64,000 bases of DNA from an uncultured Candidatus Saccharibacteria bacterium. Lineage in GTDB: Bacteria > Patescibacteriota > Minisyncoccia > UBA6257 > UBA11618. The position numbers and the translations under genes were made by a program. This document shows, piece by piece, positions 7,579-42,787 of the stretch (position 1 is its first letter; every line of letters begins with the position of its first letter). The notes beneath the pieces are model-generated. The model did no database searches. It was not told the DNA's origin and saw nothing but the letters and a program-made list of their open reading frames with translations. The stretch is taken from the NCBI GenBank assembly GCA_964436175.1, contig CAYTBX010000001.1:24306-88305 (forward strand), in the 5' to 3' direction.

Positions 7579-7784
7579 ATATTCTCTTTATATATAGTTA
7601 GTAGTAGTAGTAAGCGAGTCGGATAGGTGGATAACTTCTTTTTCTCTTGTATATAGTGGTGTTATTCGCATAGTCTTCCTGTGGATTATTTCGCGGTTGC
7701 TGCGGGGATAACTTTTGCGGACTATGGTAATCATGCGAAGTATGTGGTTGTTTGGCAACATGTTATCCGTACATTATCCACAGG
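7579..7784. other. Candidate oriC: a DnaA-box cluster plus an AT-rich tract in the dnaA-dnaN spacer
   Basis: Perfect TTATCCACA at 7774-7782. Near-boxes ggTGGATAA at 7626-7634, TGTGGATtA at 7680-7688, gGgGGATAA at 7704-7712 and TTATCCgtA at 7763-7771. AT-rich atattctctttatatatagttagtagtagtag at 7580-7612. Confidence 0.6.
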
Positions 7785-11090: not shown

Positions 11091-11684
11091 CTAAGAGATT
11101 TCGAGGTTTCCGAACACTACTGCTCCGGGTAGGATTTTCCCGCCGAACGGGCCTAGTGGGGCCGGTGCGAGCCTGTCGGATACGCATGCCGGGCATGCGC
11201 AGATGCAATGCTTGTCGCAATGCGTTCCGAATTCAGCGCAGTAATGGAAGGTTTTGTGGCCGCAATCCACGGAGCAGTTTTCGGGAACGATTTCTCCCGA
11301 GGCTGCGCGTGCGGGCAAGTTTTGGAGAAATCTGCCGCTATAGGTGAACAGTTGCGGGGATTCGAACTTGGCCGACCAGTTGATGATCGCTTGCAGTTGG
11401 TCGTGCCGGCGCGGATATGCCACGCCGAAATACTTTCCCGCCGCGTCCTTGTGTAAGGCGATCTTGCACAGGAACGTACAGCCGTCCATTTCTTTCGGAT
11501 CGCTGAAAGTGAAGCAGACTTTGTACTCCGGCTGGAGGGGGCCGCCGACATACTGGTTCTGATACCAGATGACGCCGCCCATCTCTGCGCGTAGCCGGAA
11601 TTTCGGGTGCAACGGCGTGTGCCGCTTACGGTAGTCGAGTCGCCAAGCGGCGAACGACGCCATCCACTGTTTTAGCCATTTCAT
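11091..11684 (-). CDS. Hypothetical W- and Cys-rich protein with a C-terminal Cys cluster
   Basis: 197 aa with C-terminal ...CSVDCGHKTFHYCAEFGTHCDKHCICACPAC; it has its own promoter and terminator. Confidence 0.5.
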   Translation of the reverse strand: MKWLKQWMASFAAWRLDYRKRHTPLHPKFRLRAEMGGVIWYQNQYVGGPLQPEYKVCFTFSDPKEMDGCTFLCKIALHKDAAGKYFGVAYPRRHDQLQAIINWSAKFESPQLFTYSGRFLQNLPARAASGEIVPENCSVDCGHKTFHYCAEFGTHCDKHCICACPACVSDRLAPAPLGPFGGKILPGAVVFGNLEIS

Positions 11685-11754
11685 GGCAAGTCTCCCTTGA
11701 TTGGATTGTGCGGAAAATTATCCGCTTCAGACACAAGACAATCTTGTGAATGCT

Positions 11755-11790
11755 GAATATAATATAGCACTTTTAGTGCTATTATGTCAA
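11755..11790 (-). promoter_or_regulatory. Minus-strand promoter (TTGACA-N18-TATATT) with a palindromic candidate operator inside the spacer
   Basis: On the plus strand, tgtcaa lies at 11785-11790 and aatata at 11761-11766. The palindrome atagcac-tttt-agtgctat lies at 11763-11781. Confidence 0.4.
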
Positions 11791-11794
11791 GTAA

Positions 11795-12661
11795 TTATAA
11801 CGCCAGCTTCCAGACGGAGTCGTCGGTTTTGTTGGTGAAGAATAATACGTTTCCCATGAGGGCGGGGTTTTGGATGTCGAGGGATTCCGATGTTCCGCTC
11901 CAGAGTTCCGTTACCTTAGGGGTTTTAAAATCTATCTTCATGATGCGGTCGGTCGAGACGAACTTGTTTTTGAGGTAATCGTCCGGCAGGGTTACTCCCT
12001 CGGGCGCACCCTGCGGCACACCGCAGTACATTACGGGGCCAGTATCCATAATGAAACATTTGGACGGCAGCGTAGCTATGCGGAGCGGGGTCGTTGTCTT
12101 CGTTTTCGTATCAATAAAAGAAAGCGTGAGCGCTCCGGCTTGATCCGCGCTCATGGTAAAAACATAGCGGCCGTTTTTAGACCAGCGTGCCATAAGGCCG
12201 AAGGCCGGCCCTGCCACGCGCGAAACAGTCTTCGTTGCCGTATTGATAGTCCATAAAGATGTTCGCACGAGGTTCGACGGCCGCTCGATTATAAACGTAT
12301 CGTTTTTGCCGTAGGGGTATGAGCGACTATCTTTCGGCGCGAAAAAGAGTTTTTCGGGATTTAATTCACGGATCGTAGAAGTGGCGAGGTATGCGAGCTG
12401 TTCTTCGGTATTTAAAACTTTTACGGGGTCGGCTGAAATTTCATCCAAAGAAACGGGCATCGGTTTTTTCTCCGGTAGTCCGGGGAGGTTCGGTAAAGAA
12501 AGCGACGTAATAGGCGTGTTTGCCTCAGGTGTTTCAGTTACTGCTCCCTCCGTAGGTGGAACGTACGTATGCGGTTCGAGTGCCTGCATGCCGTAATACG
12601 CCACCGTGCCGAAAAGCGCCACGAGTACGACGGTTACGGATATGAAAAGCCACTTACTCAT
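11795..12661 (-). CDS. Membrane-anchored hypothetical protein; the last gene of the T4SS-like operon
   Basis: 288 aa with an N-terminal TM segment (WLFISVTVVLVALFGTVAYY) and a Thr/Lys-rich extracytoplasmic domain. Confidence 0.55.
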   Translation of the reverse strand: MSKWLFISVTVVLVALFGTVAYYGMQALEPHTYVPPTEGAVTETPEANTPITSLSLPNLPGLPEKKPMPVSLDEISADPVKVLNTEEQLAYLATSTIRELNPEKLFFAPKDSRSYPYGKNDTFIIERPSNLVRTSLWTINTATKTVSRVAGPAFGLMARWSKNGRYVFTMSADQAGALTLSFIDTKTKTTTPLRIATLPSKCFIMDTGPVMYCGVPQGAPEGVTLPDDYLKNKFVSTDRIMKIDFKTPKVTELWSGTSESLDIQNPALMGNVLFFTNKTDDSVWKLAL

Positions 12662-13656
12662 TGTTTATTTTTCGCGTTCAACTGCTCTATTAGACCACTC
12701 CTTTTTTGTTGGAGGTCTTGGAGTTGGAGTGCTTCCGATGTTCCAAATGTCGTATTACTAAACGAATACCAGCTCTTCGGCGCATCTGCAGCGGCCTTTT
12801 TCGTCTCTAGTTTTTTAATCTGGATATTCAGCGATTCTATTTCATAGGAAGATGTCGGTTTGCTTGCCGGCTTCATTTGATCCAGATTCATTTGGTACAT
12901 ATCACGAAGAAGATTGTCTCCGCTTCCCGGCTGGGGTTTCAGATTTTTTGATTGAGCCTCAAGTGAGGATAGGTTTTTTTTAAGCGTAGCAAGGCGCTTG
13001 TTTTCCTCCGCACTCCTTTTTTCTGCGGGCGTTTCTTCGATTGTGCTGATGATATCTTCGGTAAGAGTTCTATTGTTTTCGATATCGTCTAACATCTTTG
13101 TTTGTTCGGGGGAGAGATCATCTGTTGATGGCGCATAAGGATTTCTAGCAGTATTTGAAGGTGCTTGGTCCGCTGCTTTTTGCGGTCTTATCATCGTAAC
13201 GTTCGGCAGGGCGAGAATAGTGAGCGCGGGGTTAATAGTATTCAAAACTGCGTACGATCCCATAAGGAGCGCCATGCCAGTCGCGACGTTCCAGAATATC
13301 CCCATCGCCTTCTTTTTCTGGTCTATGACGCCGCTCCAGCTATAGAGTACTCCCCCGTAGACGATGCGCACGAAAGCTACGGTGCCGGCGAGAATGAAGG
13401 CGAGATTATACATCTCTTGAAGGAATGCGGCGAAGTTGGTTTGCCGTTGCTGTACGAGCCCGCCTAACGATTCACATAATATGTAATCGCCGTTGAATTG
13501 GGGGCCGCACCGTTCGGTCGCTGTGGATCCGTATTGCGTAAAGGGATCTTCTTGCCTTGGTCCGACAAAGTTGGAGTCATATTGCGACTGTGCGTAGGCT
13601 GTAGCCCCAATTACGAGGCCGTAGAATAGTAATAATGCCGTAAGTATCCGTTTCAT
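12658..13656 (-). CDS. Pilin-like/VirB2-like membrane protein with a long C-terminal coiled-coil tail; the assignment is speculative
   Basis: A signal peptide followed by two hydrophobic helices (FILAGTVAFVRIVYGGVLY; GIFWNVATGMALLMGSYAVL) and a roughly 180-aa charged coiled-coil tail. Confidence 0.45.
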   Translation of the reverse strand: MKRILTALLLFYGLVIGATAYAQSQYDSNFVGPRQEDPFTQYGSTATERCGPQFNGDYILCESLGGLVQQRQTNFAAFLQEMYNLAFILAGTVAFVRIVYGGVLYSWSGVIDQKKKAMGIFWNVATGMALLMGSYAVLNTINPALTILALPNVTMIRPQKAADQAPSNTARNPYAPSTDDLSPEQTKMLDDIENNRTLTEDIISTIEETPAEKRSAEENKRLATLKKNLSSLEAQSKNLKPQPGSGDNLLRDMYQMNLDQMKPASKPTSSYEIESLNIQIKKLETKKAAADAPKSWYSFSNTTFGTSEALQLQDLQQKRSGLIEQLNAKNKQ

Positions 13657-14219
13657 TATTTTGGTGCGGTCATGCGTGCGAATTCCATTGGATTTTTTTT
13701 ATTTTCCGCGCTCGCGGTTACGGTATCTCCGTTATCCTCCCATGTGACCGTAAGCCCGCTTTCGCTTAGGATATTCCAGAAATAGGGAATTATAGAAAAC
13801 TCTTGCGGTTTCGTGCCCTCCTTTTTTCGTATAAGGATTTCTGGGCGCACCACAGGGATAGTGATGAATGCGTCGAGCGGCTGATTTTCATACTTCCCTA
13901 CGTTTACGCGCAGCTCGAGAAAGTCTTGCCCCGTGACGGGCGCTGCCGTGCGCGCGCTTGCGACTCCCTTGCCGCCCGCGATGCGGTCTTCGCCCGCATA
14001 CCAATTGATGTCGTACGGGGCGAGGCTTATGACCTTGCCTTTATCCACGAGGATTGCCGAGAGGTTGATCGCGGTGCCCGCAACCGGCAGCGCCTTGCCG
14101 GCATACGCGACGGGGGCGTACGACGAGGCCTTCCACGTAACGATAAGCTCCGGCGTGGCATATGAGAACCCCGGCAGGAGTATCCCGAATACCAGTATCG
14201 TTTTTTGGATTATTTTCAT
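13656..14219 (-). CDS. Secreted hypothetical protein; start taken at the internal ATG (MKIIQKTILVFGILLPGFSYA)
   Basis: A signal peptide is present. The longer ORF reaching 14471 would overlap the upstream gene. Confidence 0.5.
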   Translation of the reverse strand: MKIIQKTILVFGILLPGFSYATPELIVTWKASSYAPVAYAGKALPVAGTAINLSAILVDKGKVISLAPYDINWYAGEDRIAGGKGVASARTAAPVTGQDFLELRVNVGKYENQPLDAFITIPVVRPEILIRKKEGTKPQEFSIIPYFWNILSESGLTVTWEDNGDTVTASAENKKNPMEFARMTAPK

Positions 14220-14227
14220 GGCGTAGT

Positions 14228-14647
14228 TTATACGGCCTGCGTTGTTTTTGCGGCTTTCGCGGCAAGCGCCCGTTTGCTCATGGCGCGTCTCGGATTTTTT
14301 ATTGCGGGTGTAATGCTTTCCGCTATGGCTGCCTGTTTGGGGTGTCGGTCGAGCCATATGGTCGCGAGCATCGCTATCGTCCGTATCGGGAGCGTATTCA
14401 TTATCGGAACGAATTCGAAGAGATTTCCCACGAGCGTACGTTCGGCGCCCACTCCTTTCATAGTAGCCCACAGCCAGAGCACTACGGAAGCAGCAATGTT
14501 AATAAAAAATTTAACGAGCTCCCCTACGCCGAACAGCGCGTCGAGAAATGTGGCAAAAAAGTCCGCGATGTCGAAGAGAATGCATACGCCGACCATAACG
14601 GCTCCTTCGATACCGTTTATTTTAGGTTGCTCCGTTATTTCTTCCAT
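14228..14647 (-). CDS. Small polytopic membrane protein of the T4SS-like locus
   Basis: 139 aa with 3-4 hydrophobic helices; it overlaps the VirB4 stop. Confidence 0.5.
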   Translation of the reverse strand: MEEITEQPKINGIEGAVMVGVCILFDIADFFATFLDALFGVGELVKFFINIAASVVLWLWATMKGVGAERTLVGNLFEFVPIMNTLPIRTIAMLATIWLDRHPKQAAIAESITPAIKNPRRAMSKRALAAKAAKTTQAV

Positions 14648-16335
14648 GCGGCGTCTTTCGGGTTCGTGGTTATTACTTTGTCTTCGGGTGATGACGCGAG
14701 CACTTGGATGACGGCATGCTTCGTGCCCGCGAAAAAGAGCCCCTGCCCCACAGGCGTTTCGAGAAGTAGGCTCTTCTCCCCTTCGGATAGGTTGAACGTC
14801 TTTTGGAGCACGTCCATCATCGCGGGCGATTGTTTAAGGAGTAGCTGGAGCGAGGAGTTCGTAATAATAGGGCGGCCGTAGGGCGATAAAAGAAAGTCTT
14901 CGACGTCCTGCGTGATGGTCGTTACGCCCAAGTAGTATTTACGTGCGCGCTTTACGAGCCCGAAGAGGAATAGGGCGCCCTCGGGGTAGCGCATGAGCCA
15001 CCACGCTTCGTCGACGATCATGACGCGTTTTTTTATCTTTCCGCGCACGACGTTCCATATGAAGTTGAGTACGAGGTACATAGCGATAGGCCGCAGGCCT
15101 TCTTCGAGGTCGCGAAGGGAAAAGACGATGAGCCGGTTACCGAGGTCAACGTTTGTGGGGAAATTCGTGAAGCCCGAATAGCTACCCTCCGTGAAGCGGT
15201 ACAGGCGTTCAGCGATGGACTTACCGCCCTCCATGCTTTCGAGGACGGTCTTCAGATCCGCGAGTACGGGTGCAGTTTTTTTGGAAAAGTCTTTACCAGG
15301 GACGATGTCTTTTAGTGCGTAGGTCTCTGTGATGCCGCGGTCGAGCATTGCCTCCTCTTCAGGCGTTATCTCCCCCACCATCATCTTTACGAGGCCGGCT
15401 ACAGTGACGACGTGCGACTTCAGGGCGTCGTCGTCGCTTTCGTCTTCGGGGACGTTCGGTATGTCGAACGGATTAATATGTTCGGTTGAGGCTAGAGAGA
15501 CATTCACGAAACTGCCGCCAACGGACTCGGCAAGCGCTTTGTATTCGTGTTCGGGGTCGATGATTATCACGTCCACCCCTGTCATCATTAAGCGGAGTGC
15601 CTCGAGTTTGGCGGCATACGACTTGCCGCCGCCGGACTTGGAGAATATAACCATGTTCGCATTCTCAAGGCTGAAGCGGTCGAATATCACGAGCGTGTTA
15701 TCCGTGCGGTTTACGCCGTAGAGTATCCCCGTGTCACCCGTAAGGTCGGTTGCGACGAATGGGAATAAAGACGACGCGGGGCCGGAGTTCATCGGCGTAT
15801 GTACTGCGAGCCGGTCCGCGGCTATGGGGAGCGTGGAGTTCCAGCCCTCCATTTGCTCGAAGGTTGCCTGCTTCGCATACACCAGCCGAGTTTCGAGCAT
15901 ATTCACGATACGGCCCTCGAGTATTTCTAGATCCTTTAGGGTGTCGGCATAGAACGTTATATAGAGGCCGACCATAAAGAGGCGTTCGCGCGCCTGCTGG
16001 AGCGAGTCGCGCAGACCTTCCACGTCTTGGTATGCGGTTTCGAGTAAGGGGTTACGCACTAACCCCTTTTCTTCTTGGTCCATCAGCTGTGCTTCGATCT
16101 GCGCAGTTTTTCTTTTCAGTTTTTTTAGGGTTTCTGCGGTATCTGCCGGATGCATGAAGATGCTTACGTCCATGAGTTCTGGTGCGTTAACGATTGGGCT
16201 GAGCCAGCCGGTAGAAAGGTAGCGCGGGTAGTTGGAAACGAAAACCGTGCGGGCGAACTTCTTCCCTACCTTCATGTGGTCCGGCGCTATCGTAATTTCC
16301 GGCGGGGCGATGATATCTGCGAGATCTTTTTTCAT
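14635..16335 (-). CDS. virB4: VirB4/TrbE/CagE-family type IV secretion ATPase (ATPase portion)
   Basis: Walker A VIFSKSGGGKSYAAKL, Walker B MIVDEAWWLM, and the conserved mid-region ARTVFVSNYPRYLSTGWLSPI. Confidence 0.85.
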   Translation of the reverse strand: MKKDLADIIAPPEITIAPDHMKVGKKFARTVFVSNYPRYLSTGWLSPIVNAPELMDVSIFMHPADTAETLKKLKRKTAQIEAQLMDQEEKGLVRNPLLETAYQDVEGLRDSLQQARERLFMVGLYITFYADTLKDLEILEGRIVNMLETRLVYAKQATFEQMEGWNSTLPIAADRLAVHTPMNSGPASSLFPFVATDLTGDTGILYGVNRTDNTLVIFDRFSLENANMVIFSKSGGGKSYAAKLEALRLMMTGVDVIIIDPEHEYKALAESVGGSFVNVSLASTEHINPFDIPNVPEDESDDDALKSHVVTVAGLVKMMVGEITPEEEAMLDRGITETYALKDIVPGKDFSKKTAPVLADLKTVLESMEGGKSIAERLYRFTEGSYSGFTNFPTNVDLGNRLIVFSLRDLEEGLRPIAMYLVLNFIWNVVRGKIKKRVMIVDEAWWLMRYPEGALFLFGLVKRARKYYLGVTTITQDVEDFLLSPYGRPIITNSSLQLLLKQSPAMMDVLQKTFNLSEGEKSLLLETPVGQGLFFAGTKHAVIQVLASSPEDKVITTNPKDAAWKK

Positions 16336-16339
16336 GATG

Positions 16340-17032
16340 TTATTCTTGCGGGATGACGTGGCGTTCTACTGTTTCGGGGTTGTAGAGGTTGTATAATAAT
16401 TCCGCGAGCTCGTCTTCTTCGAGCGGCACGGCGCGGAGGCCTATCTGGGACAGACCGCTCGCCACTTGTTCGGTGCGCTGTGCGAGTGCGGCGAAGGCGC
16501 TATCCCCCACTACGCTCTGCGAGCTTCGCGGGGCAGGCCCCACTTCGGTTTGTGGTGTTGCGGTATCTGTCGGGTCATCTACTTTTTTCCGCTTGAAGAA
16601 TCCGGCGATGGCGTCGAATATTGCGCGTTGGTTTGCGGGTAATACGGAGTCGTACGGCACGATCACGAAGAACGTTTTTTCCATAATCGGGTTGTCTGCT
16701 ACGAGGGACGCCACGAAGTCTTTATATCCACTCACGAGGCCTTTTAATAAGTCGTTGGTCTCCCCGCGCTCTATGCCCGCAAGTTCGTTTATATACCCGT
16801 CGATATTTATTTTGCGGGAGTGTATGAAAATCTGCACGGAGAAGTCGAGTCCGTTCAAAAAATTCTGGTACGCGCCTATCGCGGCGTTCTGTTCGTCCTC
16901 CGAGCGGAGCTCGAAGTTCATGCCGGATACGAGTATCACGGCACGCAGGCCGCCGTCCCGCAATACTATGCAGTTGCGCTCAATGCGTTCCGCTTCGAGA
17001 AGGTTTTGGGTTGCGAGGGATTCTTCTGCCAT
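16340..17032 (-). CDS. Probable N-terminal domain of VirB4, encoded as a separate ORF
   Basis: 230 aa. NCIVLRDGGLRAVILVSGMNFELRSEDEQNAAIGAYQNFLNGLDFSVQIFIHS resembles the CagE/TrbE N-terminal region. It is separated from the ATPase ORF by 4 nt in a different frame, and the two ORFs together total about 796 aa. Confidence 0.5.
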   Translation of the reverse strand: MAEESLATQNLLEAERIERNCIVLRDGGLRAVILVSGMNFELRSEDEQNAAIGAYQNFLNGLDFSVQIFIHSRKINIDGYINELAGIERGETNDLLKGLVSGYKDFVASLVADNPIMEKTFFVIVPYDSVLPANQRAIFDAIAGFFKRKKVDDPTDTATPQTEVGPAPRSSQSVVGDSAFAALAQRTEQVASGLSQIGLRAVPLEEDELAELLYNLYNPETVERHVIPQE

Positions 17033-17042
17033 ACCGTTAATT

Positions 17043-17519
17043 CTATCTGTAGTCTATCCGTTTAGCGACCGCGCGGTCGCCGTCCGTGCGGCGTACGATT
17101 TCCCCGCGGTCTTGCGCCGGCAGGCTGCGGCTAAAAAACCCGTTGACTGATGTTTCGCGCCCCGCGACCGGACGCGTCCCCGCTGTCATGCCGAGCCCGA
17201 GCCGAGCGAGTAATCCCGTAGGCGCCTGCTTCTTTACACCGTCCGTTTTTTGCCATGTATACGTGCGGCCGCCGGTATAGTAGCGGATAGCGGCAATCGT
17301 TACCGTCATGAGTGGCCTGCCGTTGTATTTTACGAGCGCGAATGCGAGCGCGGCAGTGCCTATAAAGACCGACGTTATAAGCCAAAGCCATGTCACGAGT
17401 ATGAAGAACGATACGAATATCGTGAGGAATCCCCCTGCGATATAAAAGAATTGTTTGAGCGTTAAGGGGCCTACGATGCGGTCCTCGACGTCTATGTATT
17501 GGGGTACTTGAAATTGCAT
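17043..17519 (-). CDS. PrgI/VirB3-like small membrane protein
   Basis: MQFQVPQYIDVEDRIVGPLTLKQFFYIAGGFLTIFVSFFILV, an N-terminal motif plus two TM helices, positioned immediately upstream of VirB4. Confidence 0.55.
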   Translation of the reverse strand: MQFQVPQYIDVEDRIVGPLTLKQFFYIAGGFLTIFVSFFILVTWLWLITSVFIGTAALAFALVKYNGRPLMTVTIAAIRYYTGGRTYTWQKTDGVKKQAPTGLLARLGLGMTAGTRPVAGRETSVNGFFSRSLPAQDRGEIVRRTDGDRAVAKRIDYR

Positions 17520-17523
17520 GGTA

Positions 17524-18246
17524 TCAGGTGAACCACTTCGATTGCGGGAGCTTCGGCTTTGTCCGATCCCCTTCGGGTGCGTTCCTTGTTGTACCCGCAA
17601 TGTTAAGCGGCGTGCGTAACTGGCTGTAGTGGACTACGCGCTCGATCACGACACGCGGAGAAGCGGCGCTCTCCACGCCCGTATCCGTCTGTGGCGAGTA
17701 GCTGAAGGATCTCGCCCCGCTTTGTGCGACTGCTGCGCGCGGCTCTTCGTGTAATATAAAGGGCTGCGCGGCTGCCGGTGCGGGGGTGGGTTCGGGCGCG
17801 TTTTCCGTGGCCGCTTGTACGGGGTTTGCGGGTATCGGTGGCTGTGGCGCTGGTATGGGGCGCGGCATTGCTTCGCTCGCCGGATGCGGCGCTGTTGCCG
17901 GGGCGTTGAATCCTAAAAGAGCCGTGTTCACGCCGCCATAACGAAGTGCCGGGGCAATGGGTTCTATTATTTCTTTCGCTATTGCCTCGGTAATATTTTT
18001 AGCCAGGTCTGCGTCCGCGTTCATTTCTTTCGCGAGCTCCGCCTTAAAGCTCTCCGGCGGCAGGTCTTGCGTCACGAGGCGCAGTACTAAGAGGGGTAGA
18101 ACGCGCTCCTGCTCGTCGGACAATATAAAGCGCGCGGCAATCGCTTTAATGATTGCACTCGTGTCGTCTGAAGCGATCCATTCCTTAATCTCCGGCTGGA
18201 GCGTTTTGAATATGACGTAGAGACGGGCGATTTGTTCAAGTGTCAT
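17524..18246 (-). CDS. Hypothetical soluble protein with a Pro/Ala-rich linker
   Basis: 240 aa with no TM segment; translationally coupled to its neighbours. Confidence 0.5.
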   Translation of the reverse strand: MTLEQIARLYVIFKTLQPEIKEWIASDDTSAIIKAIAARFILSDEQERVLPLLVLRLVTQDLPPESFKAELAKEMNADADLAKNITEAIAKEIIEPIAPALRYGGVNTALLGFNAPATAPHPASEAMPRPIPAPQPPIPANPVQAATENAPEPTPAPAAAQPFILHEEPRAAVAQSGARSFSYSPQTDTGVESAASPRVVIERVVHYSQLRTPLNIAGTTRNAPEGDRTKPKLPQSKWFT

Positions 18247-21200
18247 AGATTTTGTCCGTTAGTTCCGCGTGACTGCCCTGATTGATTATCGTTCTTATTC
18301 TTTTCGTCCCGCAAGAAGCTCCGTATCGGTTCGGGGATTACTGGTGTTGGTGGGGGCGTAAGAGGTCCTTGGTAGGCTATGCGTTTCGGTTGATCCGCCG
18401 GCATGAATTTCGGGATGACGCTGATTTGGTTTTCATTTACATTTCGTTCACGCTCCACCATGGTCTTTATCGGCTCTGGTATAGGCGTGGGCTTTTGTTC
18501 CGGTGGCACAAGAGGTCCTTTGTATTCTATTTTATTTTTCGGCTCCCATTCCGCATCGATCGGTTCTGGTGGCTGCCATCCCCTACCTTCGGTTTTAATC
18601 CGTTCATTTTCCTGTTTTACGAGGACATCGAGCTCGGGCGGCGTTACGGGTGTTCCTGCTGGCTTTGTCTCGGGTTGTGGATTAGTCGCAGCTTCCAGGC
18701 TCGCTAGATACTCCTCGCTTAGATCTGCGGCTTGGGGAGTTTTTGCCGTTTCCGGTGTTTCACTTTGGGTTTGCTTAGCCGATTTTCTGAACATTTCGTC
18801 TATCGTAGCTCCGATATCAGGGCCTTTTGAGTTCGCTGGCTCCGTTTCTTCGGGTTCCGTGTACTGAGGTTTATTAGCTGCCGGCTTCGGTTGCGGAGTG
18901 GCTGTGGGAGGTGGTGTTACTGGCTGTGCCGGTTGTTGTGGCGCCAACGTATATGTCGGTGCTGCCGCAGCCGCTCCTCCGGCAGCCGGATCGGGGGGTG
19001 CGGGCGGATTTTGAGGAGGCTTCTGCGGTCCGGCACTCGGCGGATTGCTCCCTCTGTCGTCGTCCTCCCACCATCCTTTTTCTTTTACTTTCGTTTCTTG
19101 CTTTTCCGTTTTCTCTTTCTGCTCTTTCTTCTCTTTTTGCTTTTCTTTGTCGGGGTTGCGCAAGCGATAATCCGTTTCGATTACGCGGAAGGCGTCTTTG
19201 CCTTCGGGCATTCTGACTATAGCCCAGCTTGAATTAGTTGTATTTTCTACGATAGGCTCTGCAAGTGTATCAAGGCGTGCAAGAGTTGCTGGGTCGGCGA
19301 ATGCGTTAAGGTATTCATCTCGTAAAGTCTCAAGAACAGCCCGTTGCTGTTCGGTGTCCGGTTCTTTTTGGAGTTGGCCGATATGTATTCCTTGGAGCTT
19401 GCCGAATATGCGCTTATTACGCAGGATATCCGGATGGATCAGAGATATATCTTTTTCCTTAGAAAAGTTTTTCTTTGCGAAGTCGCTAAGATCCTTTTCG
19501 GTAAATATATATTCACCGGTAATAGCATCCTTTTTATCGATGGTTTTAAGGAATTCATCCCGCTGTTTTCCCTTGTCGGCATCGCTGATGTATTTTAAGT
19601 GGTCATTCGTAAGATTGCGGACAACATCCTTATTACCAAGCAGTTGCGGGGTTAGTGCTGCTGCCGCTTCTTTTTTCGCAAACGTTTTCCCCATGTACTT
19701 ATCGAATTCCGCACTGCCTATTTTCTCCCGTAGGCGGATGATGGTGTCTGAAAACGCATCCCGATGCTCTTTGCTCTTCGGTAGTTTTGCTAGTTGATCG
19801 CCAGAAAGGCGCCTCACCACCTCAAGGTCCTCAAGTGCCTCCACTGGCAGGTCATCCCCATCTTCTGGCTTAAAGGCTTTAATAGCATCATCAAACTTCT
19901 TGCCGTCTTCTTTGTTGACGTATTCATCACCCTCCTTTTCTATATTCAAGCCGAATTTGCTGTAGAGGTGAGGCGCCTTCTTTAATATATCCGCGACAAA
20001 ACCGTAGCGTTTGAGGGCGGGAATGAATTCGTCTAATTTTTCCTGCGATACGTTTTTTTCGTCATCGCTGTTGTTCAGGAGTCCGCGCGCAACGCCTTCT
20101 TTCGCGAAGGCCGCCATGCGTTCGGAACTTAGCTTGATATCGGGATTATAAATAGCATTTCTTAGTTGTACATCGCCCATGCCCTTAGCTTCGGTTTCGA
20201 AGTTGCCGAGATTCTTACTCGTCCCTGCGGCGAATTTATTGATTTGCGGCGCAAAGCGGCTAATGAGAGGAATGCGTTGCAAGAATCCTGCAAGTTGGTT
20301 TCCGCGGTTATTTTCTTTCGTTCCGTCTCCGCCGCCGCTCAAGTACTTGCGGCCCGCCCATGCGGGGGCGCCCGTTGCCGCGCCTATTGCCCAGCCCTTT
20401 AATCCCTGCGCCCATTTGAGGGCGATTTCGCCGCCTGCGCAGCCGATGTTTCGCGATTCGGTGATTCCCAAAAAGAGCATGGTGAGGACGAGGACCATAT
20501 TCGTAATGGTTTGAAAGGGCGCTGCCATGAGCGAGAGCGTTCTCGTGGCGGTGAGCCCCCCTGGTAATCCCTTCGCCTGCTCGAATGAATTCAGTAGCGT
20601 ATTAATGTCGATAGCTTGCGAAGACCCGAACCCAACCTGCGCCTTGATCTGCACGAACATAATGACGATGTACATGGAAAACGTCGCGGCGGGCAGGTAT
20701 GTTAGCTGGCAGGTAAATTTTCCGTACCACTTGCCGTAGTAGCTCCGCGTATTGGGGAAGGAATAACAGAGGATGGCGAGGGGCATTACTATAATGAGCC
20801 CCGATAGCTGCGCGAAGCGCCATATGGTTGTGAGCCCCACCATGAGCATGCCGAGCGCGGCGAACGCGGTGAAGAGTGCGACGAAAAAGACGGAAAGTAT
20901 GCCTTCTAGTATGCCGTCGCCCTTGAGTGATTCGTATGCCTGTAGTCCGTCGCTCGTTACGAGGAGCTTTTGGGGGTTGAATGCCGAGGCGAGCGTTTCG
21001 GTAAATTGCTTCATACCCTCCCATGACCCCGCCACACCTCCTCCGCCGAGCGCGGCGTTCACGAAAAAGTTAGTGAGCATGTTCGATATGTCTATAAGGA
21101 ACCCCGCGATAGAGAAGCTGAAGTTAACGAGCACCGCTGCGAGGATGAAGTTCTTTATAAGGTTCTTCATGCCGTAGCTTTCGTAGCCGAGCATGGTGGC

Positions 21201-21692
21201 GTAGGCGATTACGACGATGCCTATCGTGAACCCGAGGTTCGCGAGGTCGCGGCAGAAGCGCCAGCCGAGCTGTACGACTTCGCTATCGAGGATAGTGGTA
21301 TTGAGATAGAGACCGAACGTAACGAGGACACTCGCAAGCGTGAAAGCCGTTGAGCCGATGAAGCCGGCGATATAGCTGACGGCAAAAAGCACGTAGCCGA
21401 TACCCTTGAGGCCGATCCAGCCGATGAACGACCCGCCGATGCCGGCAGCTGCCTCTGCGATCTTAGGGACTATACCGCTTATGAGCGGTCCGGTGCCGGA
21501 CCCGGTCACCGTTTGCGCGAGCGGGATAGCGATGCTTGAGGGGATGAGTCCGCCGGTAAATGCACTGATCGCTCCGCCAGCAGCTGCTTGTCCTATTGTC
21601 GGTGCTTGCGTTTGCGCATGCGTTGAAAGCGCCGCCCCGAAAAGAAGGGTGGTTGTCGTTATCGTAAGGATTGTTTTTAGGAACTTATGCAT
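18243..21692 (-). CDS. VirB6/TrbL-like polytopic membrane protein with a roughly 550-aa hydrophilic C-terminal extension
   Basis: 1149 aa. A signal peptide and many TM helices occupy the first ~600 aa. The C-terminus has a KE-rich block (KEKQKEKKEQKEKTEKQETKVKEK), a Pro-rich block, and a ~35-aa tandem repeat (YKGPLVPPEQKPTPIPEPIKTMVERERNVNENQ / YQGPLTPPPTPVIPEPIRSFLRDEKNKNDNQ). Confidence 0.65.
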   Translation of the reverse strand: MHKFLKTILTITTTTLLFGAALSTHAQTQAPTIGQAAAGGAISAFTGGLIPSSIAIPLAQTVTGSGTGPLISGIVPKIAEAAAGIGGSFIGWIGLKGIGYVLFAVSYIAGFIGSTAFTLASVLVTFGLYLNTTILDSEVVQLGWRFCRDLANLGFTIGIVVIAYATMLGYESYGMKNLIKNFILAAVLVNFSFSIAGFLIDISNMLTNFFVNAALGGGGVAGSWEGMKQFTETLASAFNPQKLLVTSDGLQAYESLKGDGILEGILSVFFVALFTAFAALGMLMVGLTTIWRFAQLSGLIIVMPLAILCYSFPNTRSYYGKWYGKFTCQLTYLPAATFSMYIVIMFVQIKAQVGFGSSQAIDINTLLNSFEQAKGLPGGLTATRTLSLMAAPFQTITNMVLVLTMLFLGITESRNIGCAGGEIALKWAQGLKGWAIGAATGAPAWAGRKYLSGGGDGTKENNRGNQLAGFLQRIPLISRFAPQINKFAAGTSKNLGNFETEAKGMGDVQLRNAIYNPDIKLSSERMAAFAKEGVARGLLNNSDDEKNVSQEKLDEFIPALKRYGFVADILKKAPHLYSKFGLNIEKEGDEYVNKEDGKKFDDAIKAFKPEDGDDLPVEALEDLEVVRRLSGDQLAKLPKSKEHRDAFSDTIIRLREKIGSAEFDKYMGKTFAKKEAAAALTPQLLGNKDVVRNLTNDHLKYISDADKGKQRDEFLKTIDKKDAITGEYIFTEKDLSDFAKKNFSKEKDISLIHPDILRNKRIFGKLQGIHIGQLQKEPDTEQQRAVLETLRDEYLNAFADPATLARLDTLAEPIVENTTNSSWAIVRMPEGKDAFRVIETDYRLRNPDKEKQKEKKEQKEKTEKQETKVKEKGWWEDDDRGSNPPSAGPQKPPQNPPAPPDPAAGGAAAAAPTYTLAPQQPAQPVTPPPTATPQPKPAANKPQYTEPEETEPANSKGPDIGATIDEMFRKSAKQTQSETPETAKTPQAADLSEEYLASLEAATNPQPETKPAGTPVTPPELDVLVKQENERIKTEGRGWQPPEPIDAEWEPKNKIEYKGPLVPPEQKPTPIPEPIKTMVERERNVNENQISVIPKFMPADQPKRIAYQGPLTPPPTPVIPEPIRSFLRDEKNKNDNQSGQSRGTNGQNL

Positions 21693-23053
21693 CTCTGTAA
21701 TAGCGTTTGCAGTTCGGGTAGGCGCGTTGCCGAACGGGCCGTAAGGCTAGCGCGGTCTGCCTTAGTTTTTGCGGCGTACGCCTCCGCTTGCGACTTATTG
21801 ATAAGGCGGCCTACGCCCGCGGGGCCTGTCATATAGCTCGCGAGCACATCGAGGTCGGTGCTCGTTTCGTTCATGAGCGTGTTTTTGGCGTTCGTGAGAG
21901 GTGTCGTATTTTGCTGTAATTGGCTAATTGCTGTCGTAATATCCTCAAGCGCCTTTTGTTCCACGGCGAGTGCGGTTATGGTGGTCTCCCTGCCGCTCGT
22001 TCCCCTGCCAGCTTGGCAATTATTAAGTTCACTCGTTTTGTTAACGAGGGTCTGCTGCGTCGTTTGCAGGGCGAGCAAGTCCGTCTGTGCGGCTAAGAGG
22101 GGCGTTAGGGTATCTTCGATTTGCGCCATGTAGCTCACCTTTACGGCGGTCGCGTTACCCGCCTTGTATCCTTCGAGTGCGCGGCAGGCGTTTAAGGCGT
22201 CGCCCGTAAGGCCTGAGCATGGCGCGGCGTTCGTCGGTTGCCTGGGCACGTAGCCGATTTGCGGGGCGTTCGCGGATACCACGCCCTGGAAGCCGTTTAC
22301 GCCTTCGCGTATGACGCGGTTTATAAGCGCGTCTGAAATCGCGGCGATATACGCCGCCATGCTCTTGGAATTAACGATATAGTCGAGGTCGGCGCCGATT
22401 ACTTTCGCGGCGGCGGCGCCAAGCTGCATACCCGGTGTCACGATATAGCAGCGGCCGAATTCGTCGCACTTCTGTTGGCCCAAAAAGCCGTTGTTGGCCT
22501 GCACCTGCTGGTTGGCGGCGAAGCGCTTATCGGCTATGCGCGTTTCTTTTTCGTCCATGGCAAGAAGAAGCCCCCCGTAGAAGTTGTTTCGCGGTTGCCA
22601 TTGCTCGCGGTACGCCACGAAGCCGCCGGTTGAAAAGTTGGCGTAGAAGCCCGCCATATTACGCACTATTTGGTCTAAGGTGCACCGTACTTGGCCGGAG
22701 AAACGCGGTGGCTGAAGCACGGCGATTTGGAGTTGTATGCCGAAGGGTTTGCAGATGCCGGCGAGTTTCATTTCCGCGAGGATATCCCCTGTTACGATGT
22801 TGCCGTATTGCGCGAGGAACGCGTTCCAGTCCTGTATGAATAATGGCTTTCCGCCACCTTGGATCCAGTTGACCATTTGGTCAACGACCATGTCGAAAAA
22901 GCGTTTTTTTATGGTTTCTTGTATAGCTTCGGCTGCTAAGGCGACGGCGGTTTCTGCGCCGAATTGGGCGTGCGCTTGTTGTACGGGAAGCGCGGGCAAG
23001 GCGCTTATAAGGGCGAGTGCTATAGCGAGTGGGGCGAGGAAGCGGCGTTTCAT
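21677..23053 (-). CDS. Secreted hypothetical protein of the T4SS-like locus
   Basis: 458 aa with a signal peptide (MKRRFLAPLAIALALISALPA), several Cys, and a Q/T-rich helical C-terminus. Confidence 0.55.
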   Translation of the reverse strand: MKRRFLAPLAIALALISALPALPVQQAHAQFGAETAVALAAEAIQETIKKRFFDMVVDQMVNWIQGGGKPLFIQDWNAFLAQYGNIVTGDILAEMKLAGICKPFGIQLQIAVLQPPRFSGQVRCTLDQIVRNMAGFYANFSTGGFVAYREQWQPRNNFYGGLLLAMDEKETRIADKRFAANQQVQANNGFLGQQKCDEFGRCYIVTPGMQLGAAAAKVIGADLDYIVNSKSMAAYIAAISDALINRVIREGVNGFQGVVSANAPQIGYVPRQPTNAAPCSGLTGDALNACRALEGYKAGNATAVKVSYMAQIEDTLTPLLAAQTDLLALQTTQQTLVNKTSELNNCQAGRGTSGRETTITALAVEQKALEDITTAISQLQQNTTPLTNAKNTLMNETSTDLDVLASYMTGPAGVGRLINKSQAEAYAAKTKADRASLTARSATRLPELQTLLQRCISS

Positions 23054-23799
23054 TTGATCGTTTCCAGTAACTTGAGCGCGAGCATGGCGTAGATCGGGTC
23101 ATTTTCATAATCCGCAACCGCCTCGAAAATACGCTGCTTGCCGAGCGCGCGGCGGATCGCCTGCGTATACTCCGTAATGAGCGCCGGCGGCACGGCGAGG
23201 GCGCGCAGGGATGTCGCTTCCGCCTCGTAACGCTTCGCAAATATTTTCATCTGGCTTGCGACGGGGTCGTCTATGGGCGGCGGAGGCTCCGATTCCGTTT
23301 TTCCCGTAATGCTCGCGGCTGCGGCGCGGTATGCGGTAGTGGATTGTGCGTCGTCCACCGTTAGCTCCGCTTGGGTTATTTCAGGAAAGAAGTAGGCGGT
23401 ATTAAAACTCTTCATGGACTCCGTGACTGCGGCTTCCGCCATGCCGTCCGCACCCATAACGGTAAGGTTGTCCCCCACGGGCCCTTCGGGGTTTTTATCG
23501 ACGATGTTTTTACCGATGAGGGAGGCGAGGTTTGCCGTAAGGTTAGTGCTCGCGCTCACATTCGCTTGTGGGGTTGCTATAGCCGTTGTTTCAACTGGCG
23601 CTTCTGCGGTGGTCGGCACTGGTTCGCCGATGGCGTTTTGTAATGGGTCTGGTTTGCGAGCGGCTTCTATAGAACCCTCTTTTTCCGCAGTGGAATGTAT
23701 TTTATCGCGCGCGACAGTATTGCCGAACACGACAACGCCGGTGAAAATGCCCGCGGATACGAAAAACAACAGGCCTGCTTTTGCTTTGAGCCCTAACAC
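23050..23799 (-). CDS. Bitopic membrane protein with VirB8-like topology (GTG start); the first gene of the operon
   Basis: 249 aa with an N-terminal TM segment (LLFFVSAGIFTGVVVFG) and an extracytoplasmic domain. Confidence 0.45.
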   Translation of the reverse strand: MLGLKAKAGLLFFVSAGIFTGVVVFGNTVARDKIHSTAEKEGSIEAARKPDPLQNAIGEPVPTTAEAPVETTAIATPQANVSASTNLTANLASLIGKNIVDKNPEGPVGDNLTVMGADGMAEAAVTESMKSFNTAYFFPEITQAELTVDDAQSTTAYRAAAASITGKTESEPPPPIDDPVASQMKIFAKRYEAEATSLRALAVPPALITEYTQAIRRALGKQRIFEAVADYENDPIYAMLALKLLETIK

Positions 23800-23835
23800 C
23801 CTCTTAGGATAGCGCAGAAAATACGATAGAAGTTA

Positions 23836-24255
23836 GTGGATAACTGGTCATGCGAGCGCCCCAGCCGTAATCTTTTCTCGTCGGACCGTAAGCACTGCGG
23901 CAACCCGCTGCACCGCATGCAAATGCAACCTCTATCGTCGTCTAAGGCGACAGTAAAAATCGAACTCGCCCTCCGCGCGAAGCGCTGCGGAACTCACACA
24001 GCGATTTTTACTCGCCTTATTCCGCCTCTTTCGGGCATTTGCTATGCGTCTCCGCTTAGGTTGCCTTAGTGCTCACGGTCCGCCTCGTAACGCCCTAAAA
24101 AGCCTCATTTTACTAGCTTTTCAGCCGCTATGCTTGACATTTTGATAAATAAGGTGGTATTATAATATCGTGCAGTAGAGACAGTTCTTCACATGGTTTT
24201 CGGCTTAATTGCCGACCCGCTCCCACGGGTTACTCGGGAAAAAAGGAACCTTGCT
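23836..24255 (+). repeat. Copy A of a ~400-bp diverged direct repeat, a bidirectional regulatory module
   Basis: Aligns with 31515-31919 in the same orientation with short indels. It has a conserved block 1 (23836-24075) and block 2 (24131-24255), the latter comprising a promoter plus a ~85-nt leader ending in an AAGGAA SD. Confidence 0.7.
24134..24166 (+). promoter_or_regulatory. Promoter TTGACA-N18-TATTAT(aat) inside repeat copy A
   Basis: ttgaca at 24134-24139 and tattat at 24158-24163, overlapping tataat at 24161-24166. Confidence 0.5.
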
Positions 24256-24714
24256 ATGGAATCGTATCCGCTACCCAATCAGGTTTTTGAGTTGTCGATC
24301 GAAGTCCCATTCCCTGGTATTGATGTGGCGCATGCTAATGGCCATATCCATACCACATGGCGATTCGTCGGGGACGAAATTACCCAAGCAGAAACGAGAT
24401 GCTTTAAGCTCGTTTCGATCGGCGCTCAAAAAGACTTTAGCACAGCAAAGCAAGAGCTTCGTGGTCACGGATATCTGCCCCCTGCTCAATATGTTGAGGC
24501 TTTTCGGGCGAGGTTTCCCAAGAACGACAAGAAGGGGTCGATCAACGTCGGTGATTCGGTGTTTATTGATCCATGCGGTCGACCTTGCTTCGCTACGATC
24601 AGGCAGGGTAACTACATCGATCTTCAAGAGATCCATGCGGGCCCCGTCGACAATCCGAAGCCTTACTGGTTTCCCGATAGCGATCGATATCTCGTAGAAG
24701 TGAGAGACGCCTAG
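24256..24714 (+). CDS. Hypothetical protein (152 aa) expressed from the conserved leader
   Basis: The SD aaggaa lies 7-8 nt upstream. The ORF-track start at 24193 is a conserved upstream ATG that lacks an SD. Confidence 0.55.
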   Translation: MESYPLPNQVFELSIEVPFPGIDVAHANGHIHTTWRFVGDEITQAETRCFKLVSIGAQKDFSTAKQELRGHGYLPPAQYVEAFRARFPKNDKKGSINVGDSVFIDPCGRPCFATIRQGNYIDLQEIHAGPVDNPKPYWFPDSDRYLVEVRDA

Positions 24715-24764
24715 GGGGTCTAGGCACGCGAACAATCTCACGCGTAACAAAAATGAGAAACAAT

Positions 24765-24800
24765 AACCCCTTGCCGGTTTCGGCGAGGGGCTTTTCTTTT
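24765..24800. terminator. Terminator hairpin between two convergent genes
   Basis: aacccc-ttgccg-gtttc-ggcgaggggcttttcttttttt. Confidence 0.5.
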
Positions 24801-24801
24801 T

Positions 24802-25617
24802 TTAATGCGTTAGCGCGGAGATTTTTTGGATTGTTTCGATGGCGAGGTTTTCGGGGCGTTCGGTGCCGAGGAGACCAGCTTGGGTTAAGAGGGTGAGGGC
24901 TTTTTCTTTAGGGATGTTGAAGCCGTCTGCAAGGTTATTGAGAATTGTTTTGCGGGGTTGTTGAAAAAGGATGCCGACCGTTTCGTAGTAGTTCGCGAGG
25001 GCTATGCCCGTAAGTGAGTCGGCTTTGGTTTCGATTGCGATGATTGCGGAGTCGATTGAGGGTGGTGGGTTGAAGTCCGTTGGTTTTAATTTCATTGCTA
25101 TGTGCGGCGTGCCCCAGATTTGCACGCATGCGGAGAGCCTATTCATGTCTGGGGCTGTAGAGCAGATGCGCAGGGCAACTTCTTTTTGGATGGTGAAGAC
25201 GGTGCGGAGGGGTTTGTTTTGCATATCGCCTACTATGCGGAGTAAATAACCCGTGATGTAGTACGGGATGTTGCCGGCGAGGACGTAGGGCGTTTTAAGA
25301 TCCGCGATGATGGGCGCGAGGTCTTTGAGTGCGTCCCCTTCCGTGACGGTAAGGCGATCAGCTAATTCTTGGGTCGTTCCGACACTGCGGTATTTTTCTT
25401 TAAGTAGTTCTGCGAGCTCGCGATCTTTTTCTATGACGATAATTTTTTTCGCGGGCGATGCGATAAGTAAATCAGTGAGCTCCCCGTGGCCCGGACCTAC
25501 TTCAATGACGGTGTCTTCCTCGGTAATCTTTAGTGATTCAACAACTGTTAAGAGCGCCTTTTTGTTTATCAAAAAATGCTGCCCGAGGGATTTTTTTGCT
25601 TTAGGTTCGGAGTTCAT
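24802..25617 (-). CDS. rsmA: 16S rRNA (adenine1518/1519-N6)-dimethyltransferase
   Basis: LGQHFLINKKALLTVVESL...IEVGPGHGELTDLL. Confidence 0.9.
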   Translation of the reverse strand: MNSEPKAKKSLGQHFLINKKALLTVVESLKITEEDTVIEVGPGHGELTDLLIASPAKKIIVIEKDRELAELLKEKYRSVGTTQELADRLTVTEGDALKDLAPIIADLKTPYVLAGNIPYYITGYLLRIVGDMQNKPLRTVFTIQKEVALRICSTAPDMNRLSACVQIWGTPHIAMKLKPTDFNPPPSIDSAIIAIETKADSLTGIALANYYETVGILFQQPRKTILNNLADGFNIPKEKALTLLTQAGLLGTERPENLAIETIQKISALTH

Positions 25618-25776
25618 CTTTAAAATAGGCCGCAGGCGGTTTCGCGGTATTTACGAGCGAGAAACGGGATCTTTCGACGAGGAATACCGAGGTATTCCGA
25701 GGAGAAAATCGCGGTTCGCAGCCGGAAATAACCGGAAGCGGCGCGGATTTTTCCTAAGCTATTTTTAAGATGAGCT

Positions 25777-28238: not shown

Positions 28239-28378
28239 TGGAGACGGCTACCGGCGTTTCGCGCGGCGTCGTCTTAACGGTAGTCCTTCTTGCCTCTCTT
28301 TCGTTCGCGCTTGGCTACCTCTGGGGCAAGAGCGGGTCCGTGGTGCCTATCGTGATTGAGAAGTGCTCGGATGCGTGA
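28235..28378 (+). CDS. Possible small (47 aa) single-TM protein translationally coupled to the peptidase (ATGA overlap)
   Basis: MMETATGVSRGVVLTVVLLASLSFALGYLWGKSGSVVPIVIEKCSDA. Confidence 0.3.
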   Translation: MMETATGVSRGVVLTVVLLASLSFALGYLWGKSGSVVPIVIEKCSDA

Positions 28379-31510: not shown

Positions 31511-31514
31511 GGCT

Positions 31515-32183: not shown

Positions 32184-32238
32184 GAAAAAGAAAAAGAACG
32201 CACGATAACTCGCCGTGCAACAAGAGCGAGATTATATA

Positions 32239-32275
32239 TATGGCCATCCCTAGCGGAAGGCCATATTTTTTTAGA
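32239..32275 (+). terminator. Terminator hairpin
   Basis: tatggcc-atccctagcggaa-ggccata-ttttttt. Confidence 0.5.
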
Positions 32276-37055: not shown

Positions 37056-37061
37056 ATATGT

Positions 37062-40205: not shown

Positions 40206-40209
40206 GGGT

Positions 40210-42510: not shown

Positions 42511-42511
42511 A

Positions 42512-42778: not shown

Positions 42779-42787
42779 GCTTTATTA

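Follow-up and report, generated by a model that had tools for sequence, protein, structure and literature searches.

A type IV secretion-like operon near the probable replication origin of a Patescibacteria genome and a candidate structured RNA upstream of it

The window described here is a stretch of 64,000 nucleotides (nt) from an uncultured Candidatus Saccharibacteria bacterium (contig CAYTBX010000001.1). On its minus strand, at positions 11795-23799, it carries an operon of 11 tightly coupled genes for a type IV secretion system (T4SS). In the open reading frame (ORF) list, a run of 12 minus-strand ORFs fills positions 11091-23799, and independent gene calls on an identical metagenome contig in ENA gave the same 12 products, of 249, 458, 1149, 240, 158, 230, 566, 139, 187, 332, 288 and 197 amino acids (aa). 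The coupled ORF chain described in a first-pass annotation of this DNA was thereby confirmed. The junctions among the first 11 genes measure -4, -16, -4, +4, +10, +4, -13, +8, -1 and -4 nt. Hydropathy and N-terminal sequence bear out the topologies that had been assigned earlier: a single N-terminal transmembrane (TM) segment is seen in each of the 249- and 288-aa proteins, while the N-termini of the 458-, 187- and 332-aa products resemble signal peptides.

The operon and its products

The genes of the operon, in order of transcription, and the features next to it are the following, with the evidence for each in brackets where it was recorded.

23050-23799, minus strand: g249, bitopic membrane protein, first gene of the operon (TM segment and predicted fold)
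21677-23053, minus strand: g458, secreted protein; conserved N-terminal domain with Cys, long-helix bundle at the C-terminus
18243-21692, minus strand: VirB6/TrbL-like extended polytopic membrane protein (sub-gathering PF04610 match, seven TM-like segments)
17524-18246, minus strand: g240, cytoplasmic-looking protein of no known family (no TM segment)
17043-17519, minus strand: PrgI/VirB3-like membrane protein (PF12666)
16340-17032, minus strand: TrsD-like protein, separate VirB4 N-terminal domain (NF041427, NF045975, PF26593)
14635-16335, minus strand: VirB4 ATPase, C-terminal two thirds (NF045971, PF19044, Walker motifs)
14228-14647, minus strand: g139tm, small membrane protein of no known family (two to three hydrophobic helices)
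13656-14219, minus strand: g187sec, secreted protein, probably an Ig-like beta-sandwich (Pfam matches of orthologues)
12658-13656, minus strand: VirB2-like T4SS pilin with a coiled-coil-like tail (PF18895 in orthologues)
11795-12661, minus strand: g288, membrane-anchored TolB-like beta-propeller, last gene of the operon (family profile against PDB)
11091-11684, minus strand: Cys-rich 197-aa gene, adjoining the conserved system and outside it (gap, promoter, no homologue)
23877-24088, minus strand: candidate structured RNA or leader hairpin of about 211 nt (covariation)
27624-28238, plus strand: M23 peptidase, secreted or anchored, outside the operon (PF01551, 7.6e-29)

No family was assigned to 6 of the 11 operon proteins, in line with the first-pass estimate of roughly half, and NCBIfam provided no name for 7 of the 10 proteins scanned. 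The profile hidden Markov model (HMM) searches that the first-pass annotation had proposed uphold VirB4 and PrgI above the respective cut-offs. The orthologue and synteny data given below derive from a scan of species-representative genomes, which yielded 80 related loci, all from Paceibacteria-type metagenome-assembled genomes; synteny was counted in 31 loci spanning the whole region, using tblastn and iterative HMM searches.

The 566-aa protein matches the CD1110-family VirB4 model NF045971 with an E-value of 1.2e-112 and 377.6 bits against a curated cut-off of 325, the match being confined to profile positions 186-729. It also matches PF19044 (6e-23) and carries Walker A (SGGGKS) and Walker B (VMIVDE) motifs. 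The 230-aa product of the gene 4 nt upstream matches TrsD (NF041427, 3.9e-6) and positions 103-185 of the VirB4 model NF045975 (2.4e-7), and a precomputed TraC-like match (PF26593) is available for it. In a fused homologue of 788 aa (P0023), residues 1-214 align to the 230-aa ORF (44% identity) and residues 224-781 to the 566-aa ORF; the two ORFs thus tile the fused protein colinearly, as expected from the earlier description of VirB4 as two ORFs. About three quarters of the best 120 VirB4 homologues are approximately 570 aa long, and trsD and virB4 are separate genes in 28 of the 31 syntenic loci and fused in the other 3. Judged by these homologues, the split is natural and no frameshift artefact.

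The PrgI/VirB3-like protein scores above the gathering threshold of PF12666 (2.7e-9, 37.9 bits against 27), in agreement with its first-pass name, and is present in all 31 loci. The weakest family call is that of the VirB6/TrbL-like protein, the match of which to TrbL (PF04610, 3.6e-4) lies below gathering; among its orthologues, TrbL matches were obtained for 6 of 37 (best 1.1e-6), and a profile search with the TM domain gave no PDB sequence match. The protein consists of seven TM-like segments followed by a hydrophilic C-terminal region of about 700 aa rich in Pro, Lys and Glu. An orthologue occurs in 30 of the 31 loci, every time upstream of PrgI, and the VirB6-like reading is supported by these TM-like segments together with the conserved position.

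The pilin of the window is itself a sub-threshold match to PF18895 (7e-4, only 20 bits). Of 31 positional orthologues, 29 match this family (best 3e-11) and 3 match TrbC/VirB2, which bears out the earlier call of a pilin-like protein with a coiled-coil tail. A signal peptide is followed by hydrophobic helices and a long coiled-coil-like C-terminal tail. When the family profile was compared with PDB, the top matches were to Agrobacterium VirB2, at a non-significant E-value of about 0.7.

The remaining six proteins are lineage specific. In g249, the TM segment (residues 8-26) is followed by a disordered linker and an all-helical C-terminal domain. An AlphaFold2 model based on an alignment of 28 sequences predicts residues 115-249 to be all-helical, with no beta sheet, at a predicted local distance difference test score of about 90. 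Neither Foldseek against PDB nor searches of Pfam, NCBIfam and PDB sequences or profiles gave a match to g249, an orthologue of which is present by position in 27 of the 31 loci. Of the VirB8 topology ascribed to this protein at first pass, the membrane topology stands and the NTF2 fold does not, the ectodomain being predicted all-helical. g249 was rejected as a VirB8, since its predicted fold is all-alpha and not that of NTF2, and no VirB8 match was obtained by Foldseek or profile. No VirB8-like NTF2 protein was found in the predictions, which cover g249 and, with confidence only in the C-terminal bundle, g458, and no other protein of the cassette appears to be an obvious VirB8 candidate.

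The C-terminal long-helix bundle of g458 is predicted with confidence, and its N-terminal domain is well conserved, contains Cys residues and has a low-confidence fold. Fold searches with g458 returned generic bundles only, and a profile search of PDB sequences gave no match. In two related loci, L007 (2490-4682) and L012 (2378-4552), g249 and g458 form one protein of about 730 aa, a Rosetta-stone fusion that suggests an interaction of the two proteins. The possibility that they are paralogues was rejected, as hhalign found nothing.

No TM segment is present in g240, which combines an N-terminal helical domain with a Pro-rich tail and has an orthologue in 30 of the 31 loci; none of 34 orthologues matched Pfam, and no PDB match was obtained. 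g139tm, with two to three hydrophobic helices, has an orthologue in 20 of the 31 loci and no PDB match in a profile search; it was rejected as a second pilin (hhalign probability 0.7%). For neither g240 nor g139tm were relatives detectable outside the cassette. Pfam matches among 39 orthologues of g187sec were to BiPBP_C (6), Ig_3 (3) and PKD (1). The g187sec profile weakly matches Hoc/Ig domains (0.0025), and this protein, orthologues of which occur in 25 of the 31 loci, is probably an Ig-like beta-sandwich. The family profile of g288, with orthologues in 26 of the 31 loci, matches TolB in PDB (6e-8); on the strength of this profile match and the N-terminal TM segment, g288 is taken to be a membrane-anchored extracellular propeller.

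The Cys-rich gene had been counted as a member of the operon at first pass, an extent that was not upheld. It lies 110 nt from g288, in a gap that holds a sigma-70-like promoter (TTGACA-18-TATATT, 11/12, with an upstream TG, at 11790-11761), has its own terminator at 11067-11048 and has no homologue in any of the 80 related loci. For these reasons the operon proper was placed at 11795-23799. In a library of 1.8 billion proteins, some relatives of the Cys-rich protein match its N-terminal domain and others its C-terminal Cys module, and none matches the two together.

Chromosomal site and relation to known systems

The order common to the 31 loci is uvrD-ksgA-[g249-g458-VirB6-g240-PrgI-TrsD-VirB4-g139tm-g187sec-pilin-g288]-jag-yidC-rnpA-dnaA-dnaN, each gene of the cassette being present in 20 to 31 of them. 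The gene-neighbourhood comparison that had been proposed for this DNA thus reveals the same order and site in 31 genomes. The cassette is reduced in L019, L020 and L030, where TrsD and VirB4 are fused, and consists of PrgI, TrsD and VirB4 only in L064. Core chromosomal genes flank the operon of the window as first described, with dnaN, dnaA, rnpA, yidC and jag on one side and ksgA, uvrD, the M23 peptidase gene and comM on the other; the PilB gene noted nearby was also confirmed (1232-2635). Among the best 120 VirB4 homologues, every name that bears a lineage is Harrisonbacteria, Parcubacteria or Patescibacteria, the others being generic or unnamed, and the nearest named relatives are from Ca. 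Harrisonbacteria/Parcubacteria.

A cluster of three DnaA-box-like sites (7626-7782) separates dnaA from dnaN, and the cumulative GC skew has its minimum at about 6-8 kb in the window. The operon therefore probably lies 2-4 kb from the origin of replication, as judged from these sequence signals. Its GC content is not distinct. The operon, ksgA and uvrD (11795-27576) are transcribed towards the origin and hence head-on to replication, an orientation that is kept in all syntenic loci and would be unexpected for an operon thought to gain from origin-proximal dosage.

Pfam scans of essentially all ORFs of at least 100 aa in the window revealed no relaxase, VirD4, VirB11 or integrase, as the first-pass annotation had stated for the 64 kb. 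Relaxase, VirD4 and integrase are also missing from approximately 10 kb beyond the ends of the window on identical contigs, and the description of the system as lacking a coupling protein holds for this total of about 74 kb only. No att-like repeats were found, and Pfam and NCBIfam scans of the window proteins detected no domains homologous to VirB7, VirB8, VirB9 or VirB10.

The M23 peptidase, which has a hydrophobic N-terminus, may be a wall-opening partner analogous to VirB1; an M23 gene adjoins uvrD in L002, and one lies inside the reduced cassette of L019. The comM gene is located about 5 kb from the operon, a neighbourhood that is kept in 7 of the 80 loci. A small protein encoded at 28356-28721 (plus strand) ends in CxxC-x17-CxxC, like a DksA/TraR zinc finger, and has no Pfam match at 1e-3; its gene adjoins comM in L019, L020, L030 and L064.

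Using transposon sequencing, Wang et al. (2023) showed that a T4SS of Saccharibacteria (SEML1_0006-0019) is essential for epibiotic growth; pilins are present in it, and coupling and relaxase proteins were not recognisable (PMC10633639). In 3,035 Patescibacteria genomes, Quinonero-Coronel et al. (2025) identified a monophyletic VirB4 clade nested in MPF-FATA, with TrsD, PrgI/VirB3, VirB6 and VirB2-like pilins encoded near virB4 (PMC12102498). Relaxases are almost absent from these genomes, homologues of the type IV coupling protein (T4CP) are mostly encoded far from virB4, and the T4SS of Paceibacteria lies close to dnaA, dnaN, rnpA, ksgA and rpmH (PMC12102498). The locus of the window shares with the systems of this clade VirB4, a separate TrsD, PrgI/VirB3 and a VirB2-like PF18895 pilin, the lack of a relaxase or nearby T4CP, and a chromosomal site next to dnaA, dnaN, rnpA and ksgA; a VirB6-like protein may be a further common part, to judge from topology and position. 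In no essential respect does the locus depart from these systems. It differs from the Saccharibacteria prototype in having one pilin gene instead of an array of six, and its virB4 is not directly followed by genes for a peptidase or lysozyme.

The MPF-FATA systems of monoderm bacteria (Prg/Pcf of pCF10, Trs of pGO1 and the CD1110-type system of C. difficile CTn elements) are similar in that the CD1110 model is the best match for VirB4, PrgI and TrsD are present, and the architecture is that of a single membrane, with no outer-membrane core components. Unlike these systems, the locus has no relaxase, T4CP, origin of transfer (oriT) or integrase in about 74 kb, no detected VirB8-like NTF2 protein and no VirB1-type hydrolase in the operon; its one large inverted repeat, described below, behaves like an RNA element. 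Moreover, it encodes a VirB2-like pilin, which the Gram-positive systems lack, and occupies a fixed chromosomal site instead of a mobile element. The archaeal Ced system (CedA/CedB), which imports DNA between cells, also has a VirB4-family ATPase, but matches to the models of CedB and CedD reach no more than 22-25 bits here, against cut-offs of 600-700, and no CedA-like proteins were identified.

The HMM matches and the class-wide synteny support the proposal made at first pass of a chromosomally fixed, relaxase-less T4SS of Gram-positive style in the candidate phyla radiation, used for something other than plasmid conjugation. With a probability of roughly 0.88, the locus is a vertically inherited chromosomal T4SS of the Patescibacteria clade, derived from MPF-FATA and with the layout typical of the class Paceibacteria. 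That it would be the remnant or cargo of an integrative and conjugative element from which relaxase and integrase have disappeared is hardly credible. Such an origin would fit the closeness of VirB4 to the conjugative CD1110/MPF-FATA families and the occurrence of the TrsD partner in pGO1-type plasmids (PMC12102498). However, the operon is flanked by the same core genes in 31 genomes, which span many candidate phyla-level names, its GC content does not stand out, none of its 11 tightly coupled ORFs is broken, and neither an integrase nor att-like repeats are present; in addition, the clade is monophyletic and transfer between classes is rare (PMC12102498).

The system, its location and the hypotheses of DNA uptake and host contact were already published in 2023-2025 (PMC10633639, PMC12102498, PMC12857230), and what is new here is limited to the upstream RNA-like element and the refined list of components. 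In PMC12102498, no mention was found of a TolB-like propeller, an Ig-like protein, g249-g458 fusions or the upstream hairpin; the words 'TolB' and 'propeller' do not occur in its full text.

The upstream hairpin and other features of the window

The 390-nt non-coding stretch upstream of g249 contains, on the strand of the operon, a long imperfect hairpin of about 211 nt (z = -3.9), which is kept upstream of the g249 orthologues of four relatives (g249 60-86% identical to that of the window). Using a covariance model built from these sequences, a second copy, on which the model had not been trained, was found in the window at 31531-31747 (minus strand, 195.7 bits), directly upstream of a membrane-protein gene (30362-31510). 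A pattern scan of metagenomes yielded six further copies. On contigs with a VirB4 95% identical to that of the window, the hairpin is found within the operon, where it separates trsD from virB4 and has the same sense. The copies in related loci are as follows.

L089: 2743-2953
L090: 2740-2953
L091: 2737-2947
L092: 1280-1490
L096: 4954-5163
L093, L095, L097 and L099: further copies

The unit common to the dispersed copies consists of the hairpin and about 35-45 nt upstream of it, and the hairpin itself has a closing and an apical stem with a conserved internal loop at the centre. In 11 distinct copies, which are 75-87% identical, 93.5% of the cells pair, against 34-45% in slid controls; compensatory double changes occur in 33 of the 74 pairs, and none of 500 shuffles reached any of these measures. 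G·U cells outnumber A·C cells by 29 to 7, and the covariance model scores 150-232 bits in the sense and 29-42 bits in the antisense direction. No Rfam family, including 6S, matched the element even at E<=10, the whole window gave no Rfam match at gathering, and permissive Rfam scans of both hairpin regions returned chance matches only. A small ORF in the hairpin (VE.DSK.PKEE...) was rejected as a coding gene, since it is interrupted in the first window copy and the stems covary.

On this comparative evidence, the hairpin is a dispersed, probably once-mobile candidate structured RNA that could act as a leader, as a processing or stability signal, or as a small RNA. A large inverted repeat beside T4SS genes might instead be an oriT-like DNA element or a plain miniature inverted-repeat transposable element (MITE), and both the dispersed, multi-copy occurrence and the insertion between trsD and virB4 in one relative, which implies mobility, would agree with this. 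Such a DNA element is nevertheless judged quite unlikely: selection on the structure of a transcribed RNA is favoured by the preservation of G·U pairs, the strand-specific scores, the extent of compensatory change at this level of identity, the presence of copies far from T4SS genes and the lack of a relaxase. The hairpin resembles transcribed palindromic repeats such as ERIC and Correia/NEMIS in being long (about 200 nt) and imperfect, multi-copy and intergenic, and in running in the direction of the flanking genes. Its likeness to 6S RNA is one of layout only, and its divergent copies and strong covariation set it apart from young MITEs.

In the g249-linked copies (window copy 1 and L089-L092) and in the second window copy, the hairpin is followed by a DnaA-box-like motif, TTATCCAC(A). 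In the window, TTATCCAC is found at 23835-23843 (minus strand), 36-44 nt upstream of the start codon of the T4SS operon, and at 31514-31522 (minus strand) for copy 2; allowing one mismatch, it has 20 matches in the window versus 9 expected. The motif may be a DnaA-dependent control site, part of the repeat or a product of chance. At L094 980-1000, the hairpin sequence pattern occurs upstream of a g249 orthologue and gives no match to the covariance model, and this copy may be disrupted or rearranged.

The two hairpin copies of the window also share about 160 nt upstream (24089-24200 versus 31748-31868). This shared stretch carries a strong divergent promoter (TTGACA-18-TATTAT, plus strand) and the first codons, ATGGTTTT..., of a plus-strand ORF. 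At copy 1 this ORF is a 173-aa gene (24193-24714) with no homologue in the 80 related loci. In close relatives, ksgA and g249 are separated by a different gene of 128 aa (L089) or have no gene called between them (L090, L091, L092). The 173-aa gene, missing at this place in the relatives, thus resembles an insertion on the ksgA side of the operon. Between hairpin copy 2 and the gene for polynucleotide phosphorylase (PNPase), about 730 nt (31750-32480) contain no convincing ORF and no Rfam match, which is long for a reduced genome. The PNPase gene itself (32482-34536, minus strand; two RNase_PH domains, KH, S1) lies about 9 kb from the T4SS.

Further away, the region 38797-55025 resembles a metal-resistance island, with genes for a cupredoxin, a DsbD_2-HMA protein, two P-type ATPases, a multicopper oxidase, ICMT, HSP20 and a TrmB-PAS regulator, as well as an AcrB-type resistance-nodulation-division (RND) pump (1017 aa) and a membrane-fusion protein; at 42-48 kb the GC content is down to 0.47. 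The combination of an RND pump and a membrane-fusion protein is odd in a presumed monoderm of the candidate phyla radiation, and the island may have been acquired horizontally. The gene at 36573-37166 (minus strand) encodes a PycTM (Pycsar effector) domain (1.2e-12) and may belong to an anti-phage cyclic-nucleotide system; the 247-aa ORF beside it (37149-37892, plus strand) has no Pfam match. A tRNA scan of the window found none.

Possible role of the system

In the mechanism proposed here, TrsD/VirB4, PrgI and the VirB6-like protein would make up the translocon in the cytoplasmic membrane, and VirB4 would power the polymerisation of the VirB2-like pilin, giving a pilus or tube and a channel across the single membrane and the wall. 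The secreted and anchored proteins would build or tip a structure on the outside, cross the wall and touch the host cell, and the nearby M23 peptidase may open the wall. The machine would operate with no relaxase and probably no dedicated coupling protein, so that outward conjugation of DNA is not expected of it. Import of host DNA or macromolecules has been proposed for the patescibacterial T4SS (PMC12102498), and a 2026 preprint linked VirB4 and PNPase to RNA-feeding parasitism and described tubular structures at the parasite-host interface that may be T4SS pili (10.64898/2026.06.21.733656). The role that is tentatively ranked first, at somewhat less than even odds, is that of a host-contact conduit that acquires host macromolecules, with nucleic acids as the leading candidate.

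The T4SS might, instead, inject or secrete proteins into or onto the host bacterium in order to manipulate or damage it, as has been put forward for Saccharibacteria (PMC10633639, PMC11665869). A pilus-bearing T4SS with extracellular accessory proteins would fit a contact-dependent injector, and VirD4-like genes are present elsewhere in most Patescibacteria genomes (PMC12102498). This role is regarded as rather unlikely, given that no coupling protein is encoded within about 74 kb and that the conserved cassette has no evident effector-like genes; in S. epibionticum, moreover, the T4CP homologue, which is encoded far from virB4, is not essential while the T4SS is (PMC12102498). Ranked after effector export is a role mainly in adhesion through the pilus, which seems improbable. 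The least likely role is natural transformation, in which DNA from the environment would enter through the T4SS and be recombined, as in Helicobacter pylori. The locus resembles the ComB system of that organism in lacking a relaxase and a nearby T4CP and in having VirB2/3/4/6-type parts; comM is only 5 kb away, and ComB offers a possible precedent for import. The ComB analogy was made in PMC11665869 and PMC12102498, and together with the effector hypothesis it was repeated in a 2025 review (PMC12857230) and the 2024 perspective (PMC11665869). ComB, however, is a diderm system that needs homologues of VirB7-10, none of which was found here, and the comM neighbourhood is confined to the few loci mentioned above. 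What decides against transformation, and makes it very unlikely, is published genetics that separates competence from the T4SS: in S. epibionticum, ComEC is required for competence, which has a link to type IV pili, and cells can grow without comEC, whereas the T4SS is essential (PMC12857230, PMC10633639).

Several points weigh against the reading of the locus as a Patescibacteria-clade T4SS that serves as a host-contact conduit. The placement in the clade rests on the VirB4 profile score and the names of homologues, the window protein assigned to VirB6 stays below threshold, g249 is predicted all-alpha and no fold like that of VirB8 was detected, and no VirB1-type hydrolase is encoded inside the operon. 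A VirD4 homologue elsewhere in the genome may keep the export of cytoplasmic substrates possible, and the direction and cargo proposed for Paceibacteria T4SSs are putative. The most specific version of the import hypothesis, a reverse-acting T4SS in which a VirB2-like tube and six lineage-specific envelope proteins, among them the g249-g458 module, the Ig-like protein and the TolB-like propeller, import host RNA or DNA as a nucleotide supply, with no coupling protein and with expression governed by a mobile 211-nt leader RNA, is considered unlikely in its entirety.

The T4SS is an important system and a leading candidate for the way in which ultra-small epibionts extract what they need from their hosts. 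The window does not add a new kind of system, but it provides a clean example from the Paceibacteria and sharpens the list of parts. The conserved core has 11 genes, TrsD and VirB4 are naturally split, a bitopic helical protein takes the place of a recognisable VirB8, a TolB-like propeller and an Ig-like protein are encoded, and g249 and g458 occur fused in relatives. Together with the candidate regulatory RNA at the 5' end of the operon, these parts are concrete targets for later structural and genetic work.

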